This document shows positions 3,001 to 63,918 of a stretch of 64,000 bases of DNA, piece after piece. Each line of letters begins with the position of its first letter. Within the stretch, counting starts at the first letter, position 1. A program made the translations under genes and the position numbers. Origin of the DNA: a virus; the IMG/VR virus record IMGVR_UViG_3300032116_015770. The stretch is one strand, 5' to 3'. Below the pieces are notes generated by a model. It was not told the DNA's origin and ran no database searches. It saw only the letters and a list, made by a program, of their open reading frames with translations.

Positions 3001-3815
3001 CGGTGCCGGGAGTTTCCTCTACTTCTGGAGCGTATTGTTCTGGTACCAGTGTAAAATATGTTCCTGAAATTGGTAATTTCGGGCGAGGAAGCATAGCAAT
3101 ACAACAACAAAGTGTTCAAAACTCAGGGGGCTTTTGGAATACTACTACTCCCCCCTATGGGTTTCAAGGTACAGATAGAATATATTTTGGTTGGATAGAT
3201 AACGATAATATGCCGGAAGATGGTTTTTCAGGTGATACATATGGAGATTTTACAGTAGAGGGATGGTTTGCCTGGAGAGGTGCAGCTAATCCTAACGACA
3301 GATATTTGTTTGAGTTAAGTAACTCTTTTGCTGTAAGGTTTGGAGGAGGTTCTAGAGGTGGTGAATATAGCATAAGATGGAATAATAATGACGCCTACAT
3401 GTATAATGTTCCTACTGCTAAAAATGCATTCACAACAAGCACAGGATCTAGTATAAATTTTGATCATATAGTGCTTCAAATGCGGGGTGGTAATTTTATG
3501 CTATTCCTAAATGGAAGATTAGTTTATACCTATTCTGTAAGCAGAGTACAAACTGCATATAACCCTATTGCACCCGCTACAAGTTATACTATGCAAGATG
3601 ATTATTCTAGTACAGGTGCTTATTTGCTTCTTGGAGGTGATAACGAACAAACTGGTGCTAAGTCATTTAGAGGATATATACAAGACATCAGATTATCCAG
3701 ACTTGCAAGATATGATGTAAAAGTTATTAATGGTGTAAGTGTTATGGTTCATAGAGGTACTAATACACCTGCCCTTCCAACTAAACCGTTCATACCACCT
3801 GTTTTAGTAAACTAA
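3..3815 (+). CDS. Large virion protein with about 5 LamG/ConA-like domains (5'-truncated)
   Basis: Frame is open from the window start. Repeated FT(I/M/W/L/V)E-x-W/F ... HI motifs typical of LamG domains; lies next to the neck genes. Confidence 0.7.
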   Translation, partial: FRLPDVPIKYTNSALYPSHFFDTVSHHFANTAPNVSSRSFTMETWVQTDSFGGNTTPIFVVGTTGAGRNYGIFLNHGGAGLSIMTPNITNTGNVITGGLGDLGNANARGNLWVGTGQLTTGSWHHIAFTHSNVNGNLTVFLNGNVVREANIGFVNMTPVLTQNVYIGTSPDTSINNLRGWVSGAAITEGLKYTSNFTPLREPFPIAGNTLFNLNLNNNASFTAYITPANVSISAGNVDIIPRVPGRATGGSPRLDGYHSPFTSTQLRANVSPNMYHTGRAEENGLLSYQGLASYNNSGLDTGRIYTTLKPSDTSLDLGTDPFTIEAWIYPNRQNNGYGLCGKGSTTTGFSLEVGTVTTNLLTFRHGSSAITATTGAISVYSWQHIVIQRSSTGSNDFRMFVNGRLAHIDTLSTNLTDVNTIFYFLTNRTNSGMAVDANLYINNFRISKVARYPTTDTIGALAFTPSRLPLTSDNDTSLLLFNNWWTDITMSPYLDVGHHHFYAHDPGNENKTVGANPVSNKNWSVSFNTNAVGIRIYNSTTNTDGLNADSSDFAFGTGDFTWEIFVAKKSRFNNVTSTTETGYLWNCKRVNTPDDDSLAIYENHQGKICVDYGDGTRSRIILSSRSSIAGSIEKWYHIVLQRVNNRLALYINGIREAEVLFSTDMLCRNTTPCIGTQGSTGVVTQQNSNSFRGFMSNLRVLKGKAFYAVNGENPIRFEVPSDPLANDPACVLLTFNNPALIDQSLGGKNKGQKLIHAGALTDATAFVHGDYSITAFSPFKEKPKSWRQSQGIVAGYNFNGIYGYSTGAASHGWHGHETYYLGMGETPFTLEFWFYLVKVAVSGNTTYPYVFRSGSESSAWRGIQLAVHSVAAQNANRYGAVSLRTFSDTAANNILSGNEYSMSLSGTYHHIALVCDPEATNNKYAIFVDGQLRSWSGLGAQFSTDDYGGTPLEFRDGANGIVLTRRAKYSTYQPVITGIFDEKPIEAFTAFQPITTTIHPVPGVSSTSGAYCSGTSVKYVPEIGNFGRGSIAIQQQSVQNSGGFWNTTTPPYGFQGTDRIYFGWIDNDNMPEDGFSGDTYGDFTVEGWFAWRGAANPNDRYLFELSNSFAVRFGGGSRGGEYSIRWNNNDAYMYNVPTAKNAFTTSTGSSINFDHIVLQMRGGNFMLFLNGRLVYTYSVSRVQTAYNPIAPATSYTMQDDYSSTGAYLLLGGDNEQTGAKSFRGYIQDIRLSRLARYDVKVINGVSVMVHRGTNTPALPTKPFIPPVLVN

Positions 3816-57773: not shown

Positions 57774-57840
57774 GATGCGGGTTGTTAAGTCTAAGAAAGT
57801 GTATAAACGAAAAGTTAAACATAGAGGCTACGATGAGTAA
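57724..57840 (+). CDS. Small basic protein, ArfA-like
   Basis: Translated by hand: MRKSNPVHKDLRTPKYKMRVVKSKKVYKRKVKHRGYDE. Confidence 0.5.
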   Translation: MRKSNPVHKDLRTPKYKMRVVKSKKVYKRKVKHRGYDE

Positions 57841-58441
57841 CTTTATTGTAGAACGCTACATAAATTCCGGTTTATGTGATGATATTGTAAAGAATTTTAA
57901 CGAGAGTAACCCTTCATGGACTAATTCTACCCGTGGCTACTGGTTAGTATCTAGTAATCACATGGATCAAGACCTTATGATGAGGTACAAACGTGAAATT
58001 TTTAAACATCTACAGTTCTATAAGGAAGTTTTTCCAGCCGCCTTTGAGGGTTTTGCGGCTTTACAGCTAACTGAACCGTTTAACGTGCAAAGATACGAAC
58101 CAAATCAGTTTTATTCACGGTGGCACTGTGAAAATAACGGTCATCAGGCGTTTCAAACCCGGGTTCTTGCGTTCATGACGTATTTGAACACAGTAGATGA
58201 TGGGGGTGAGACGGAATTTATGTTCCAAGACATGAAAACCCGGGCAAAAAAGGGTAAAACATTGATTTGGCCTGCATATTTTACACATACACACCGTGGT
58301 ATCCCTTCTCCAACACAAAATAAGTACATAATTACTGGTTGGGTAGAGGTTGCCCCATGGGAAGACATTGACTTAGATGAAAGTGATGAGGATTTTTACA
58401 AAAAATTGGATACTATTGACACTGTTTCGAGGTTTCTATAA
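57833..58441 (+). CDS. 2OG-Fe(II) oxygenase
   Basis: WHCE, YLNTVDDGGET, THTHRG, KYIITGW motifs. Confidence 0.88.
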   Translation: MSNFIVERYINSGLCDDIVKNFNESNPSWTNSTRGYWLVSSNHMDQDLMMRYKREIFKHLQFYKEVFPAAFEGFAALQLTEPFNVQRYEPNQFYSRWHCENNGHQAFQTRVLAFMTYLNTVDDGGETEFMFQDMKTRAKKGKTLIWPAYFTHTHRGIPSPTQNKYIITGWVEVAPWEDIDLDESDEDFYKKLDTIDTVSRFL

Positions 58442-58770: not shown

Positions 58771-59748
58771 ATGTCACATGAAATTGAGATCGTCGACGGT
58801 GTTGCTAATATGGCTTATGCAGGTGAAGTGCCTTGGCATGGTCTTGGTAAGCGAGTACCACATGATGTAACACCTGAGCAGATGTTGAAGGCTGCTAATC
58901 TGGATTGGACGGTAGAGAAACGTAGCATGTTCTTCACTGACCGTAACGGTTCTCCTGTTCTTACTAAAGCACAAGCACTGATCCGTTCAACCGATGAAAA
59001 AGTTCTTACGGTTGTAACTGAGAAATGGAATCCAGTTCAGAATCAAGAAGCGTTCGAGTTTTTCAACGACTTCGTAAGTGCTGGTGATATGGAGATGCAT
59101 ACGGCTGGTTCCTTGAAGGGTGGTACTATTGTATGGGGAATGGCTCAAATCAAAGACAGCTTCGAGCTGTTCGGTGGAGATAAGGTTGAAGGATTCCTTC
59201 TATTTTCAAATCCTCATATTTTCGGTCGTTCTATCGACATTAGATTTACACCCGTACGTGTGGTTTGTAATAACACTCTTACCATGGCTCTTAATTCTAC
59301 CTCTGATACAAGGGTTACCGTCAACCACAGAAACGTATTTAACGGAGACCGAGTTAAGGAAACCTTGGGTATTGCGAAGGAGAAACTGGCCTTCTACAAA
59401 GAGCAGGCATCGTTCCTGGGTAAGAAAAAGTACAATGGGGAGACGATCATCGAGTATTTTAATCGTGTGTTCCCGTCAATGAGTAAGGATCAAGTTACTA
59501 GTGACGACATGCGTAAAGCACCTATCTCGCGTCAAGCAGAAGATGCTATGGATTACTTGCATACTCAACCGGGTGCTAACTTTGCCGAAGGCTCCTGGTG
59601 GCAGGCATTTAATACAGTAACGTATATGACTGACCACGTTCTAGGTCGCTCGGCTGATACACGTCTTACTTCAGCCTGGTATGGTCAGAATAGAATCAAG
59701 AAAGAAAAAGCTCTAAACCTGGCAGTAGAATATGCTGAGGTAGCATAA
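58771..59748 (+). CDS. DUF932 family protein
   Basis: PWHGLG, TAGSL..G, TPVRVVCNNTL, NTVTY..DH motifs. Confidence 0.85.
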   Translation: MSHEIEIVDGVANMAYAGEVPWHGLGKRVPHDVTPEQMLKAANLDWTVEKRSMFFTDRNGSPVLTKAQALIRSTDEKVLTVVTEKWNPVQNQEAFEFFNDFVSAGDMEMHTAGSLKGGTIVWGMAQIKDSFELFGGDKVEGFLLFSNPHIFGRSIDIRFTPVRVVCNNTLTMALNSTSDTRVTVNHRNVFNGDRVKETLGIAKEKLAFYKEQASFLGKKKYNGETIIEYFNRVFPSMSKDQVTSDDMRKAPISRQAEDAMDYLHTQPGANFAEGSWWQAFNTVTYMTDHVLGRSADTRLTSAWYGQNRIKKEKALNLAVEYAEVA

Positions 59749-59758
59749 ATAAAATGTA

Positions 59759-59782
59759 GTTACGGGGCCTAGGCCCCGTAAC
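59759..59782. repeat. Perfect 24-bp palindrome (hairpin, possibly a terminator)
   Basis: GTTACGGGGCCT-AGGCCCCGTAAC. Confidence 0.85.
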
Positions 59783-59784
59783 AG

Positions 59785-59813
59785 TTGCAAGTAACTCACT
59801 TATGGTATACAAT
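59785..59813 (+). promoter_or_regulatory. Sigma70-type promoter of the tRNA-array leader
   Basis: TTGCAA-N17-TACAAT. Confidence 0.72.
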
Positions 59814-59821
59814 ATAGTTCT

Positions 59822-59941
59822 ATGTTAAGCAAATCATCAACACTACAGCATTTTATTAGAGTAAATAATAGTTTACTCGGGTATTGCTTTGGTTCGATCG
59901 ATCGCAATACATGGGAGCCAGAGGAGTCGAGGGACGTGTAA
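59822..59941 (+). CDS. Putative leader peptide (39 aa) of the tRNA-array attenuator
   Basis: MLSKSSTLQHFIRVNNSLLGYCFGSIDRNTWEPEESRDV*; ATG about at the predicted +1; no SD. Confidence 0.6.
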   Translation: MLSKSSTLQHFIRVNNSLLGYCFGSIDRNTWEPEESRDV

Positions 59942-59974
59942 CTAGTACTACAAATACACCAAACCCTCGGCTCC
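59923..59974 (+). promoter_or_regulatory. Antiterminator hairpin
   Basis: GGAGTCGAGGG (59923-33) pairs with CCCTCGGCTCC (59964-74); inner GTGTA/TACAC stem. Confidence 0.7.
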
Positions 59975-59995
59975 AAAAGACCCGAGGGTTTTTTT
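59961..59995 (+). terminator. Intrinsic terminator (attenuator)
   Basis: AAACCCTCGG/CCGAGGGTTT stem and a run of 7 Ts. Confidence 0.85.
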
Positions 59996-60013
59996 ATGTA
60001 ACACACAACGCTG

Positions 60014-60042
60014 TTGCATTTACTTGAGTAGTATAATATAAT
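60014..60042 (+). promoter_or_regulatory. Second sigma70-type promoter directly before the tRNA array
   Basis: TTGCAT-N17-TATAAT. Confidence 0.65.
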
Positions 60043-60064
60043 CTTTAAAAATTTGCGTACCTTA

Positions 60065-60140
60065 CCTTCCTTAGCTCAATTGGGAGAGCGTTCGCTTGAT
60101 AAGCGAAAGGTACCTGGATCGAAACCAGGAGGAAGGACCA
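60065..60140 (+). tRNA. tRNA-Ile(GAT)
   Basis: Cloverleaf, encoded CCA; T-loop ATCGAAA. Confidence 0.9.
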
Positions 60141-60142
60141 GT

Positions 60143-60217
60143 GCACCGTTCGTCTATCGGTTAGGACATTGCCCTTTCACGGCAGTAAGAGGAGTTCGAT
60201 TCTCCTACGGTGTGCCA
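60143..60217 (+). tRNA. tRNA-Glu(TTC)
   Basis: Cloverleaf, CCA. Confidence 0.92.
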
Positions 60218-60220
60218 TTC

Positions 60221-60332
60221 AATATGCTAGTTGTAAGCCATGGGTTCGATCAAACCTGAGTAACTATGTACACAAACGGTAAAGCCGGCCGGACACTCCG
60301 TTGAGCATAGCAAATAGTGCAGCTGGCATATT
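60221..60332 (+). ncRNA. Unassigned structured RNA within the tRNA array
   Basis: 15-bp closing stem with G-U pairs and nested helices. Confidence 0.55.
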
Positions 60333-60336
60333 TAAT

Positions 60337-60414
60337 GGTATGGTGCTAGAGTGGTCCAATAGAACGGTCTGCAAAACCGTAAAGTCGTCGGTTCAAATCC
60401 GACCCATACCTCCA
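60337..60414 (+). tRNA. tRNA-Cys(GCA)
   Basis: Cloverleaf, U73, CCA. Confidence 0.9.
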
Positions 60415-60415
60415 A

Positions 60416-60492
60416 GGGCCGGAAGCTTAATTGGTATAAGCGTCCGACTCATAATCGGGGGACAGTGAGTTCGAGTCTCACCCGGCCCACCA
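60416..60492 (+). tRNA. tRNA-CAT, probably Ile2 (lysidine)
   Basis: GACTCATAATC anticodon arm typical of Ile2. Confidence 0.8.
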
Positions 60493-60496
60493 ATAC

Positions 60497-60573
60497 GGCT
60501 CGTTAGCTCAGTTGGTTAGAGCGCATGCCTGTCACGCATGAGGTCACCGGTTCGAGCCCGGTACGAGTCGCCA
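60497..60573 (+). tRNA. tRNA-Asp(GTC)
   Basis: Cloverleaf, G73, CCA. Confidence 0.93.
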
Positions 60574-60583
60574 AAGGATTTTT

Positions 60584-60832
60584 ATGGACTATGTTGTAAC
60601 TTTTTTTGCTATATTTTTTCTTGATATTGTTAATGCTTGGTATATTAAAGCTATTAGTGATGAAAGACCTTTTATGGCTAGTGTATGGGCTGTAGTAGTA
60701 ACCTTAGCTTCAAGTGTTGCTATTATTAGCTATACAAGAGATAATACTATGGTTATACCTGCTCTTGCAGGAGCATTTGTTGGAACCTATGTTGGTATAG
60801 TAATAAGAAAACGTAAGATTATTGCCGAGTAG
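60584..60832 (+). CDS. Small multi-TM membrane protein
   Basis: Three hydrophobic segments; stop codon lies inside tRNA-Asn. Confidence 0.65.
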   Translation: MDYVVTFFAIFFLDIVNAWYIKAISDERPFMASVWAVVVTLASSVAIISYTRDNTMVIPALAGAFVGTYVGIVIRKRKIIAE

Positions 60833-60898
60833 CTCAGTGGTAGTAGCAGTTGACTGTTAATCAATTGGTCGTAGGTTCGATCCCTACCTCGGCAGCCA
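60823..60898 (+). tRNA. tRNA-Asn(GTT)
   Basis: Cloverleaf, CCA. Confidence 0.92.
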
Positions 60899-60905
60899 GT
60901 TGTAA

Positions 60906-60990
60906 GGGTGGCGAGCAGCATTGGTGACTGCAGCGGACTGTAAATCCGTCGCCTACGGCACACGGGGTTCGATTCCCTGGCCACCCACCA
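60906..60990 (+). tRNA. tRNA-Tyr(GTA)
   Basis: Long variable arm, CCA. Confidence 0.92.
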
Positions 60991-60997
60991 GTAGTAA

Positions 60998-61072
60998 GCG
61001 TCGTTAGTTCAGAGGTAGAACGCTGTCTTTACACGGCAGTTGTCGGTGGTTCGATTCCATCACGACGCACCA
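60998..61072 (+). tRNA. tRNA-Val(TAC)
   Basis: Cloverleaf, CCA. Confidence 0.92.
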
Positions 61073-61073
61073 A

Positions 61074-61149
61074 GGGGGTATAGCTCAGCTGGGAGAGCAG
61101 TAGCTTTGCAAGCTAAAGGTCATCGGTTCAATCCCGTTTACCTCCACCA
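61074..61149 (+). tRNA. tRNA-Ala(TGC)
   Basis: G3-U70 pair, CCA. Confidence 0.92.
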
Positions 61150-61152
61150 TAT

Positions 61153-61229
61153 CCGAGTTTAGCGCAGCCCGGTAGCGCATCTGCTTTGGGAGCAGAGGGT
61201 CGGGAGTTCAAATCTCTCAACTCGGACCA
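61153..61229 (+). tRNA. tRNA-Pro(TGG)
   Basis: Cloverleaf, CCA. Confidence 0.93.
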
Positions 61230-61231
61230 AT

Positions 61232-61305
61232 TGGGGTATGGTGAAATGGTATCACACAGGATTTTGATTCCCGTGTCCTAGGTTCGATTCCTAGTACCCC
61301 TGCCA
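61232..61305 (+). tRNA. tRNA-Gln(TTG)
   Basis: Cloverleaf, 1-72 mismatch, CCA. Confidence 0.88.
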
Positions 61306-61401
61306 CCTATAAGGAGAATAACAAATGGGGCAATGCTGGTTTGTATCTTTGTAGTAATATTTTTAATTTTTGTGCATAAGAATTTTTAAGGAGATCCTGT
61401 T

Positions 61402-61440
61402 ATGGATAGTGACAAGAGTGGTAAGGTGAAGGGAGTATAG
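61402..61440 (+). CDS. Putative 12-aa mini-ORF (MDSDKSGKVKGV) overlapping tRNA-Lys
   Basis: AAGGAG SD at 61388-93. Confidence 0.35.
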   Translation: MDSDKSGKVKGV

Positions 61441-61506
61441 TCAAACGGTTAAGACAGCGGACTTTTAATCCGTCAGGTCAGGGTTCGAGTCCCTGTGCTC
61501 CCACCA
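61431..61506 (+). tRNA. tRNA-Lys(TTT)
   Basis: Cloverleaf, CCA. Confidence 0.92.
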
Positions 61507-61581
61507 TATAAAAACACATTAGTTCTAAGGGTTGTTCCGAAGGTAATTATCTTCTATGAAGTCCTAGTGTGTTTCTATATG
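61505..61581 (+). ncRNA. Long hairpin element between tRNA-Lys and tRNA-His
   Basis: CATATAAAAACACATTAG / CTAGTGTGTTTCTATATG terminal inverted repeat. Confidence 0.45.
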
Positions 61582-61654
61582 TTGTTCCTAGTGTAGTGGT
61601 CGCACACCTGTCTGTGAAACAGGTAGAGAGGGTTCGATTCCCCGGTTCAACCCA
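61581..61654 (+). tRNA. tRNA-His(GTG), atypical
   Basis: G-1:C73; two U-U mismatches in the acceptor stem; bulged T-stem. Confidence 0.75.
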
Positions 61655-61656
61655 AT

Positions 61657-61732
61657 GCTACTTTAGCTGATGTGGTCATAGCGGCGGTCTGAAGAACCGT
61701 TGAACCAGGTTCGATTCCTGGAGGTAGCACCA
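61657..61732 (+). tRNA. tRNA-Phe(GAA)
   Basis: Cloverleaf, G37, CCA. Confidence 0.9.
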
Positions 61733-61741
61733 TAAGTAAAT

Positions 61742-61829
61742 GGAAGTGTGGTCGAGTGGTCTATGGCGCTAGTCTTGAAAACTAGAGGCTCGAAAGGGTC
61801 CGTGGGTTCGAATCCTACCACTTCCGCCA
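61742..61829 (+). tRNA. tRNA-Ser(TGA)
   Basis: Long variable arm, CCA. Confidence 0.93.
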
Positions 61830-61835
61830 TTACAA

Positions 61836-61926
61836 GGAGATATGGCTGAGAGGCTTAAGGCAGCGGTTTGCTAAACCGTCGATCATTTAAAATGATCCGT
61901 TGGTTCGAATCCAACTATCTCCGCCA
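61836..61926 (+). tRNA. tRNA-Ser(GCT)
   Basis: Long variable arm, CCA. Confidence 0.93.
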
Positions 61927-61927
61927 A

Positions 61928-62002
61928 GGTGATATGGCGTAGACGGATGCGCACAAGTTTCATAAGCTTAGGAGATTGGATCGTTACCAATTATCACCAC
62001 CA
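61928..62002 (+). tRNA. tRNA-Met(CAT), atypical T-loop
   Basis: Acceptor GGTGATA/TATCACC; T-loop ATCGTTA. Confidence 0.78.
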
Positions 62003-62011
62003 GGAGATACA

Positions 62012-62200
62012 ATGGATACTTTAATCGATGCTTTACCTTGGTTACTAGTCATACATTTATGGACTGACCCACCACCTAAGATGCAATTTGTTTATAAGAA
62101 AGAATATCCATCCTATCAACAATGTATGCAAGCAAGAGAAGAATGGATTAAGGTAAATAACCCACCACCTGATTTTAAGGTGTTATGTTTACTAAAATAG
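62012..62200 (+). CDS. Hypothetical protein
   Basis: GGAG SD; start refined to lie outside the tRNA. Confidence 0.55.
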   Translation: MDTLIDALPWLLVIHLWTDPPPKMQFVYKKEYPSYQQCMQAREEWIKVNNPPPDFKVLCLLK

Positions 62201-62283
62201 CGGATATGGTGTAATGGTAGCCACGCTGGTCTTAGAAGCCAGTGCCGTAAGGCGTGGGGGTTCAAGTCCCTCTATCCGCACCA
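62200..62283 (+). tRNA. tRNA-Leu(TAG)
   Basis: Long variable arm, CCA. Confidence 0.92.
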
Positions 62284-62292
62284 AGGATAATT

Positions 62293-62469
62293 ATGGAAGA
62301 TATAGTTTTAACTAAACAACAAATTTTTAATCTATTAAAAATATACGATCACTTTCGTAACTATGATGACTTTACGGTAACCTTAGGTCAAGAAGGTAAA
62401 GTGAGCGTTAGTTTTGATTCTAGAAAACTAGATCAAAAGATTGATAGAACATTTGTTCCAACCCTTTAA
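62293..62469 (+). CDS. Hypothetical protein
   Basis: AAGGA SD; start refined. Confidence 0.55.
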   Translation: MEDIVLTKQQIFNLLKIYDHFRNYDDFTVTLGQEGKVSVSFDSRKLDQKIDRTFVPTL

Positions 62470-62470
62470 C

Positions 62471-62545
62471 CTGGCGTTAGTATAATGGACAATACAGGAG
62501 ACTTCTAATCTCTAGATGGGGGTTCGATTCCCTCACGCCGGACCA
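62471..62545 (+). tRNA. tRNA-Arg(TCT)
   Basis: Cloverleaf, CCA. Confidence 0.92.
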
Positions 62546-62550
62546 ATTTT

Positions 62551-62627
62551 CCGCCCTTAGCTCAATGGACAAGAGCACTTGGCTACGGACCAAGAGGTTA
62601 GGAGTTCGACTCTTCTAGGGCGGTCCA
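62551..62627 (+). tRNA. tRNA-Arg(ACG)
   Basis: Cloverleaf, CCA. Confidence 0.92.
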
Positions 62628-62632
62628 AGACT

Positions 62633-63190
62633 ATGGAAAAAAATTTATCTTATTACATACGTAAGTATAAAGCCTTTGATGATAACAAGTGTGATGAAAT
62701 AGTTTATGAGTTATCTAATGTAGAGTGGTTACAACATAAATTCTATAACAGTGCTAGTAATACCTATGCAAGTTATGATAAAGAGCTTTCTATTTCTCAT
62801 GATAGTATCAGCTATACTAGTTATCTTGAGAGACAAATTAATAGAACGATGAGTTTGTATTTGGAGGATTTAAATTTTCCATGGTACTCTAGTTATAATC
62901 AATCTCGTCCTCTCAGATTTAACAGATATGAGAAAAATACTTTAATGAGAGAACACTGTGACCACATTCATGATATGTTTGATGGTACACGTAAAGGTAT
63001 ACCTGTTCTTTCTGCTGTAGGGTTATTGAATGATAATTTTAAGGGTGGTGATTTAATATTTTTTGGTGATACAAAAATAAAACTAGGTAAGGGGCAAGTC
63101 GTTATATTTCCTTCTAATTTTTTGTTTCCACATTTAGTAAGTGAAGTTACTGAAGGTGTCAGGTATACTGTAGTAACTTGGGCATGGTAA
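62633..63190 (+). CDS. 2OG-Fe(II) oxygenase
   Basis: HCD, LNDNFKGG, FPSNFLFPH.V..VTEG.RY motifs. Confidence 0.88.
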   Translation: MEKNLSYYIRKYKAFDDNKCDEIVYELSNVEWLQHKFYNSASNTYASYDKELSISHDSISYTSYLERQINRTMSLYLEDLNFPWYSSYNQSRPLRFNRYEKNTLMREHCDHIHDMFDGTRKGIPVLSAVGLLNDNFKGGDLIFFGDTKIKLGKGQVVIFPSNFLFPHLVSEVTEGVRYTVVTWAW

Positions 63191-63199
63191 GGAGAATGT

Positions 63200-63391
63200 A
63201 TGAGTGGTAAAGGAAGTAAACCCAGGCCGTATAGCGTTGATCAAGAAACGTTTATCAATAACTGGGATAGAATATTTGGAAATAAAAAAAGAGAAAAAGC
63301 TTTAGATGAAATGATGAGAATTAGTGATGAGATAGGTGCTTATGTAGATGAACCTATTGATAATCCTCTTATTAAAAAGATTCCGGAGTAG
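63200..63391 (+). CDS. Conserved small phage protein
   Basis: MSGKGSKPRP...NWDRIF; AAGGAG SD. Confidence 0.65.
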   Translation: MSGKGSKPRPYSVDQETFINNWDRIFGNKKREKALDEMMRISDEIGAYVDEPIDNPLIKKIPE

Positions 63392-63397
63392 TCAAAA

Positions 63398-63434
63398 GTC
63401 TCCAAATTATAAATAAATAAAATAGTTTGGAGAC
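63398..63434 (+). promoter_or_regulatory. RBS-sequestering hairpin containing a late promoter
   Basis: GTCTCCAAA/TTTGGAGAC stem covers the GGAG SD; TATAAATA at 63408-15. Confidence 0.75.
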
Positions 63435-63438
63435 GATT

Positions 63439-63852
63439 ATGAAACAATGTAACAGGTGTAACGAAGAAAAAGAAATAACTGAATTTTATAAAAATTCTAA
63501 ACGGGTTTATCCATATTGCAAAGCATGTGCTAGAAAAACATATGCTGAAACACATTATCAGAATAATAAAGAGTTATACTTGAAACGCACAGCTGGGCGT
63601 AATAAGATGTTACGTAAAAGCTGGATTGAATTTAAAAGTAAATTTAAATGTACTAAATGTAACGAAAATAGACATTGGTGTATAGATTTTCATCATGTCG
63701 ATAGCTCCTTAAAAGAAGGGTTAATACCTAAGTTTTTTAAAGAGCGTTCTCGTGAAGTATTTGAAAAAGAATTTAATAAGTGTATCCCATTATGTCGTAA
63801 TTGTCATGCGGATTTACACTACAATGAAAGACAAAATTCTATCTCGGTGTAG
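63439..63852 (+). CDS. HNH homing endonuclease
   Basis: C..C, C..C, C..C, DFHH...K, LCRNCH..LH motifs. Confidence 0.85.
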   Translation: MKQCNRCNEEKEITEFYKNSKRVYPYCKACARKTYAETHYQNNKELYLKRTAGRNKMLRKSWIEFKSKFKCTKCNENRHWCIDFHHVDSSLKEGLIPKFFKERSREVFEKEFNKCIPLCRNCHADLHYNERQNSISV

Positions 63853-63918
63853 CTCAATTGGCAGAGCAGTGGTCTCCAAAACCAAAGGTTTGCGGTTCAA
63901 CTCCGTACACCGAGGCCA
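63843..63918 (+). tRNA. tRNA-Trp(CCA)
   Basis: Cloverleaf, G73, CCA. Confidence 0.92.

Follow-up and report, generated by a model that had tools for sequence, protein, structure and literature searches.

In the stretch of viral DNA analysed here, a window of 64,000 nucleotides, the leader upstream of a phage tRNA array is very probably a ribosome-mediated transcription attenuator, which, to judge from comparative sequence analysis, would audit decoding capacity and gate the array. We are largely confident that this variant of translational attenuation is real and conserved, and it is apparently unpublished. The features of the locus are collected in Table 1.

Table 1. Features of the leader and its surroundings in the window.
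Feature	Position	Strand	Details
DUF932 gene, upstream of leader	58771..59748	+	Pfam PF06067, E 2.6e-36
Palindromic hairpin, 10-bp stem	59759..59782	.	stem listed on minus strand
P1, sigma-70-type promoter	59785..59813	+	TTGCAA 59785-90, 17 nt, TACAAT 59808-13
Leader ORF, leaderless, no SD	59822..59941	+	39 codons; 19 amino acids, 30 codons used
Weak hairpin within ORF	59881..59910	+	-8.5 kcal/mol
Antiterminator 5' arm	59923..59940	+	outer 59923-33, inner 59936-40; overlaps codons 34-39 and stop codon
Antiterminator 3' arm	59955..59974	+	59964-74 pairs with outer, 59955-59 with inner segment; 59964-70 common to terminator 5' arm
Intrinsic terminator	59961..59995	+	stem 59961-70/59982-91, U tract 59989-95
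P2, promoter-like	60014..60042	+	TTGCAT-17-TATAAT; -35 3/6, -10 perfect
boxA-like Nus antitermination remnant	60042..60051	+	TGYTCTTTAAMA in relatives; 5' end cut by P2 insertion
tRNA array	60065..63918	+	21 genes in window; Gly-TCC, Thr-TGT, Leu-TAA past window end

The window comes from an uncultured T4-like myovirus with terminase, tail sheath, portal and major head genes, and its head protein is 66% identical to the counterparts in Pelagibacter phage Mosig and Methylophilales phage Melnitz. The same locus occurs on contigs of about 165 kb from other assemblies. The hairpin between the DUF932 gene and P1 may end the DUF932 transcript and insulate the leader promoter. Two genes for 2OG-Fe(II) oxygenases were also noted, one inside the tRNA array (62633–63190) and one upstream of it (57782–58441).

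A sequence-only reading of this DNA had described a promoter TTGCAA-N17-TACAAT with its +1 near the ATG at 59822 and, starting there, an ORF of 39 codons lacking a Shine–Dalgarno sequence, and all of these are present. The −10 box of P1 lies 8 nt from the ATG, with the predicted +1 at the ATG or 1–2 nt before it. A promoter scan of the window overall performed at chance level (21 sites found, 21 expected); the P1 site is kept in six relatives, and TTGC and TA.AAT are invariant in an alignment of 7. The leader ATG and TAA are likewise invariant in aligned relatives, and among 30 pan-type leaders there are 21 in which the ATG falls 5–9 nt past the −10 box. A GTAACAG/GTAAC motif was seen just 5' of the −35 box at several promoter-like sites in the window (57183, 58711, 59785 and 36292), and the leader promoters of relatives also carry it there. 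Recounting gave the same composition of the ORF as the earlier reading, that is, every amino acid but Ala and 30 distinct codons, the last new residue being Pro33. The absence of Ala is real, because five other assemblies carry exactly the same leader region. The peptide has no Pfam match. A simulation of chance, which that reading had proposed, found the ORF to be only mildly unusual: at least 19 amino acids are expected in a single genome with P = 0.047 (phage proteome) or 0.065 (random DNA), and 19 amino acids jointly with 30 codons with P = 0.005 or 0.033, respectively. Taken alone, the amino-acid diversity of the window ORF is suggestive only.

The end of the ORF overlaps an antiterminator, made of a perfect 11-bp outer helix and an inner helix that the earlier reading did not contain. 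Folding confirmed that the 11-bp pairing overlaps the 5' arm of the terminator, and the two structures are mutually exclusive by computation, as expected of an attenuator. Computed energies are −23.3 kcal/mol for the antiterminator with its inner helix and −16.9 kcal/mol for the terminator. The terminator is present as had been described, except that the seven Ts are seven in total, three of them paired with AAA, and do not follow the stem as an extra run. The 186-nt leader RNA folds well (z −5.1), its best fold contains the antiterminator rather than the terminator, and the terminator probability in naked window RNA is 0.00.

Ribosome footprints were then imposed on the fold. A ribosome on the stop codon allows the terminator to form with probability 1.0; by A-site codon, the terminator probability is about 0 at codons 2–31 and 0.85–1.0 from codon 32 on, in an equilibrium folding that ignores that the antiterminator is transcribed first. 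Shorter footprints shift the switch point to codons 33–34, and with a 13-nt footprint Glu32 and Pro33 lie beyond the read-through zone. The window switch is among the cleanest of the family. The proposal that a stall at almost any codon leads to read-through is therefore upheld by footprint folding in the window, where a ribosome at the end of the ORF masks the antiterminator and a stalled one does not, but the effect is clear in only about half of the pan-type relatives. The upstream partner of the terminator 5' arm averages −16.7 kcal/mol, compared with −9.0 kcal/mol for a control set of 57 terminators that do not precede tRNAs (p = 2e-10), and across the family this partner begins 5–36 nt ahead of the stop codon. 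In one relative, L004, both helices have changed in sequence yet still pair, which is the covariation that had been suggested as a check. The hairpin GTATTGC/GCAATAC inside the ORF exists, but the pause role once assigned to it is unsupported: it is weak, missing from the MFE fold, mismatched in some relatives and not evident in L004. It ends before 59923 and excludes the antiterminator arm, so that it does not correspond to the 1:2 pause or protector hairpin of classical leaders, and no pause site of the kind needed for transcription–translation coupling was identified.

The relatives provide the stronger test of composition. Three phages fetched through the upstream DUF932 gene share a common layout, with a promoter, an ATG 6–7 nt past the −10 box, an ORF of 37–41 codons with a similarly placed stop, an antiterminator, a terminator, a boxA-like motif and tRNA-Ile as the first tRNA, and each of their peptides contains all 20 amino acids. 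Further loci were gathered with patterns for the terminator and boxA, which take no account of the peptide. A fixed rule gave 76 terminators before tRNAs, 59 of them with a short ORF ending 42–68 nt 5' of the U tract, and the leaders before phage tRNA blocks comprise 56 different peptides, which fall into 26 clusters when grouped at 50% identity. Among the 29 leaders of at least 36 codons, 24 contain 20 amino acids and 27 at least 19. When the worst member of each of 14 clusters was taken, 9 of 14 were complete against 0.06–0.09 expected (p = 4e-14, a value that treats the clusters as independent although they are not fully independent lineages), while off-frame translations of the same DNA reached 20 amino acids in 2 of 145 cases. 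Three 31-codon leaders from one cluster also hold all 20 (P = 0.0003–0.002 each). The ORF rule chose the wrong start for L218 and L072; L218 was kept in the statistics, which is conservative, and L072 starts with GTG and contains 20 amino acids.

Between related leaders, residues present in a single copy change at 9% of aligned positions, compared with 29% for redundant ones (odds ratio 3.6 within residue type), and 24 of 26 changed singletons reappear elsewhere in the leader. Related leader pairs stay complete in 15 of 17 cases (4.3 expected). Trp, His, Tyr and Asp average 1.0–1.25 copies per leader, and an internal Met occurs in only 15 of 30 leaders. Family-wide, 6.1 codons follow the last new residue, compared with 3.0 in shuffles, a longer tail, as expected if the ribosome covers it. 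Against a uniform synonymous null, the excess in codon diversity taken by itself is weak (p = 0.06). Upstream of tRNA arrays, start, stop position and length are therefore conserved while the peptide changes freely and its completeness is far above chance, as the earlier reading had said should be looked for; this pattern fits a peptide selected for its composition and not for a fold. The window thus has a short ORF under selection as an ORF, lying between a promoter and the genes to be regulated, as in leader-peptide attenuators.

Array heads were also chosen independently, by way of an RNA inside the arrays. A leader was present at about 5 of 13 such heads, the five having 34, 31, 31, 41 and 40 codons with 19, 18, 20, 20 and 20 amino acids, respectively; at the other 8 or so none was found, and some of these loci may stop short of the true head. 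Exact-motif scans with the window's own leader returned nothing related (L071 is an unrelated GC-rich match), and the pattern used on metagenomes was strict and yielded 3 loci. In bacterial genomes, 1 of 53 pattern matches had a leader ahead of tRNA genes in an array (L267, on a short MAG contig that is possibly phage). The array RNA is a conserved, structured element of about 115 nt found at 20 viral loci (60219–60335 in the window; L292–L310 and L132), with compensatory changes in 18 of 33 pairs, invariant loop motifs and no Rfam match, and it is reminiscent of the stable RNAs encoded in the tRNA clusters of T4. Another non-tRNA hairpin element lies between tRNA-Lys and tRNA-His (61507–61580, −19.5 kcal/mol), with weak matches elsewhere. 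The ORFs 62254–62469, 60584–60832 and 63427–63852 are interleaved with the tRNAs, and each stops at the following tRNA gene or within it. The last of them contains CxxC pairs and looks HNH-like without matching Pfam, and in assembly L312 ARAGORN calls no tRNA-Trp after its counterpart.

The leaders were next compared with the tRNAs that they precede. The 21 tRNAs previously counted downstream of the leader were confirmed in the window, and other assemblies of the same phage give a full array of 24 tRNAs for all 20 amino acids. Of the 22 non-CAT tRNAs in this array, 21 have a codon in the window leader. Ala (though tRNA-Ala is in the array), AUA and elongator Met are left unsampled; the two CAT tRNAs of the window array, which the leader does not sample, are by inspection probably Ile2 and elongator Met. 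Shorter leaders (n = 13) do not contain every amino acid, but they cover 97% of those of their own block, compared with 72% when pairings are permuted, and 12 of 13 cover their block completely. In multi-codon families, the leader offers a readable codon for 98 of 110 array tRNAs, compared with 78 after synonymous redraw. The control codons are thus related to the downstream product, by block and by anticodon, as in known attenuators. These comparisons support a general rule by which a leader would sample the tRNAs of the block it heads; the window leader would be pan-amino-acid because a single array holds all the tRNAs. Loci L163, L218, L223, L169 and L121 have two to four separate leader cassettes, each matching its own tRNA block.

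Among cultured phages, blastn and tblastn found no homolog of the window leader; in Salmonella phages Arash and 7t3 the tRNA blocks that were inspected lack a leader of this kind, and a match in pVp-1 has no annotated tRNA there. Mesorhizobium phage Cp1R7A-A1 (L291, MT188704) has two block-matched leader/terminator cassettes, at 2036–2110 and 3499–3630. The first consists of a 24-codon ORF rich in Val, Ile and Glu and a terminator before Val, Ile, Val, Glu and Glu tRNAs. The second consists of a 43-codon ORF, annotated as a hypothetical protein, and a terminator; all 14 amino acids of its block occur in the ORF, and Cys and Pro are absent from both. Modelled switching in this phage is partial. 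In the 735-kb phage LR756501 (L290), a 22-codon leader with 7 Leu codons at 2874–2942 is followed by a terminator, a boxA-like motif and five tRNA-Leu genes.

In the trpL, pheL, thrL, leuL and multivalent ilvL leaders, and in pheM of pheST, a short ORF runs at its end into an antiterminator whose formation excludes that of an intrinsic terminator, and the window ORF has this arrangement in common with such leader-peptide attenuators of amino-acid operons. The his leader is built in the same way, a stall giving read-through (PMC12360218). As had been claimed, the window thus has the trp/his geometry but no control-codon runs devoted to one, two or three amino acids, and it falls outside the classical family. 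Unlike the trp, his and phe leaders, it contains single codons for nearly all amino acids, starts leaderless, and leads into phage tRNA genes rather than enzymes. Since it has no 1:2 protector helix, its default when untranslated would be read-through, unlike in the classical leaders. The best Rfam match is His_leader, below threshold at 23 bits against 49. A structured ncRNA, a T-box riboswitch or another Rfam cis-regulator was rejected, as no covariance model matched.

The closest precedent for broad sensing is the whiB7/wblC uORF attenuator of Actinobacteria, in which uORF composition likewise sets the starvations sensed. Single codons of the whiB7 uORF decide which starvation is sensed, and in M. 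smegmatis it contains every amino acid but Cys and loss of its start codon raises read-through (10.1101/2023.06.02.543512). Unlike the window family, this uORF is Ala-rich, and it lacks several amino acids in other species, so that completeness is not a conserved trait there; it controls a bacterial transcription factor, whereas the window leader has no Ala and heads phage tRNA genes. The earlier statement that no general tRNA-pool sensor has been described in phages stands in so far as we found no paper on attenuation of tRNA genes, in a search that covered few subscription journals, but a near-complete sensing uORF was already known in bacteria. The tRNAs of the T5 tRNA-rich region offset tRNA-cleaving defences through strong expression from a strong promoter, in a report that does not mention attenuation (PMC11555353). 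Two further reports describe phage tRNA-rich regions as countering such defences (PMC11464382; PMC10264068). These regions carry the same kind of cargo as the window and offer a plausible reason to sense tRNA loss. As in rrn-type boxA/Nus antitermination, relatives have a boxA-like motif directly before an untranslated RNA array; unlike in rrn, the motif sits just past a regulated terminator and is degenerate in the window, and Nus binding is putative. Many relatives were found with a pattern that included boxA, so its frequency among them is not independent evidence.

The proposed mechanism is as follows. RNAP would start at P1, and a ribosome would initiate on the leaderless AUG. If all codons are read promptly, the ribosome at codons 32–40 is computed to cover 59923–40, so that the terminator folds and an RNA of about 170 nt would be released. 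If the ribosome stalls up to about codon 31–33, or fails to initiate, the stronger antiterminator is predicted to capture the terminator 5' arm, giving read-through, which in relatives a boxA/Nus complex may aid. The new tRNAs would relieve the stall and close a negative feedback loop. Comparison of the leaders indicates that selection holds at least one codon per class of tRNA ahead of the zone that the ribosome masks. Candidate natural triggers are cleavage of host tRNAs, decay of tRNAs in the course of infection, and starvation. Against the attenuator reading, besides the residues that this copy does not sample, the unclear switching in about half of the pan-type leaders and the array heads without a leader, a single missing codon stalls more weakly than a run of codons, and P2 could bypass the switch.

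The significance of P2 depends on the relatives. A downstream promoter had been raised earlier as a caveat, and the site is indeed present in the window, within a 42-nt insertion relative to L001 and L005, but as a caveat it concerns this lineage rather than the family. In L001 and L005 the terminator and the first tRNA are 34–37 nt apart with no promoter in between, and most pan-type relatives lack P2, with a distance of 34–46 nt, so that read-through is apparently the sole route into the array head in them. The window copy is an imperfect family member, with no Ala, Glu32 and Pro33 at the switch edge, elongator Met unsampled, and P2 cutting boxA. The description of the leader as sensing all tRNAs accordingly holds for completeness in the family, for conserved start, stop and length and for the paired helices, and fails in this copy for Ala, elongator Met and AUA, with Glu and Pro at the edge. 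It is possible, though we consider it rather unlikely, that the family is real and this copy relaxed, P2 driving the array constitutively while the leader decays or forms a minor inducible part. The window has lost Ala although all six of its closest relatives keep it, the P2 insertion damages boxA, and possible stages of loss are seen in L299, where P2 accompanies a TTG-started leader without Ala, and in L298 and L301, where terminator and P2 remain and the leader is gone. On the other hand, L004, L172 and L181 retain 20 amino acids despite P2, and in the window the reading frame with its start and stop is intact, as are both helices, the antiterminator pairs perfectly, the switch is clean and nearly every tRNA is still sampled. 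The likeliest state of the window is an attenuator in which P2 adds a basal supply to the inducible output of P1, with Ala not sensed.

Two other explanations concern the family as a whole. The leader might be a generic sensor of ribosome slowdown, caused by antibiotics, toxins or ribosome shortage, with the variety of amino acids incidental. In the model any stall or failed initiation does give the antiterminator, and whiB7- and topAI-type uORFs respond to antibiotics. Yet completeness, the relocation of singletons, the block-matched short leaders and the anticodon matching are left unexplained, making this a poor candidate; a generic slowdown response is probably a side effect rather than the selected function. 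Still less credible is a functional small peptide, or a small RNA merely ended by the terminator. A GY[CR]FG..W motif is common to the subfamily of the window and the RNA is well folded, but the 26 clusters have no motif in common, conservation falls on the residues present once, the composition tracks the tRNAs downstream, the L001 and L005 arrays have no other promoter, and neither an Rfam nor a Pfam family was matched.

Attenuation of the tRNA array by translation of the leader is thus the reading that we prefer, and the phage probably makes extra tRNAs whenever some codon cannot be read. On balance we lean towards a programmable audit of the tRNA pool, in which each block would be gated by a leader written in the codons of its own tRNAs and a complete array by a minimal all-amino-acid leader. 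Such a device would detect the loss of almost any host tRNA, including cleavage by anticodon nucleases, and answer with the phage's own tRNAs and no protein regulator. It would extend attenuation to tRNA genes and to viruses, with selection shown to act on how complete a peptide is in amino acids and not on its sequence, and the leaders could be used as they stand to report tRNA damage. Such a switch also bears on the reasons for which phages carry tRNA arrays and on the dosing of these arrays: being tuned to the tRNAs that it controls, it argues for on-demand supply after tRNA loss over steady codon compensation.
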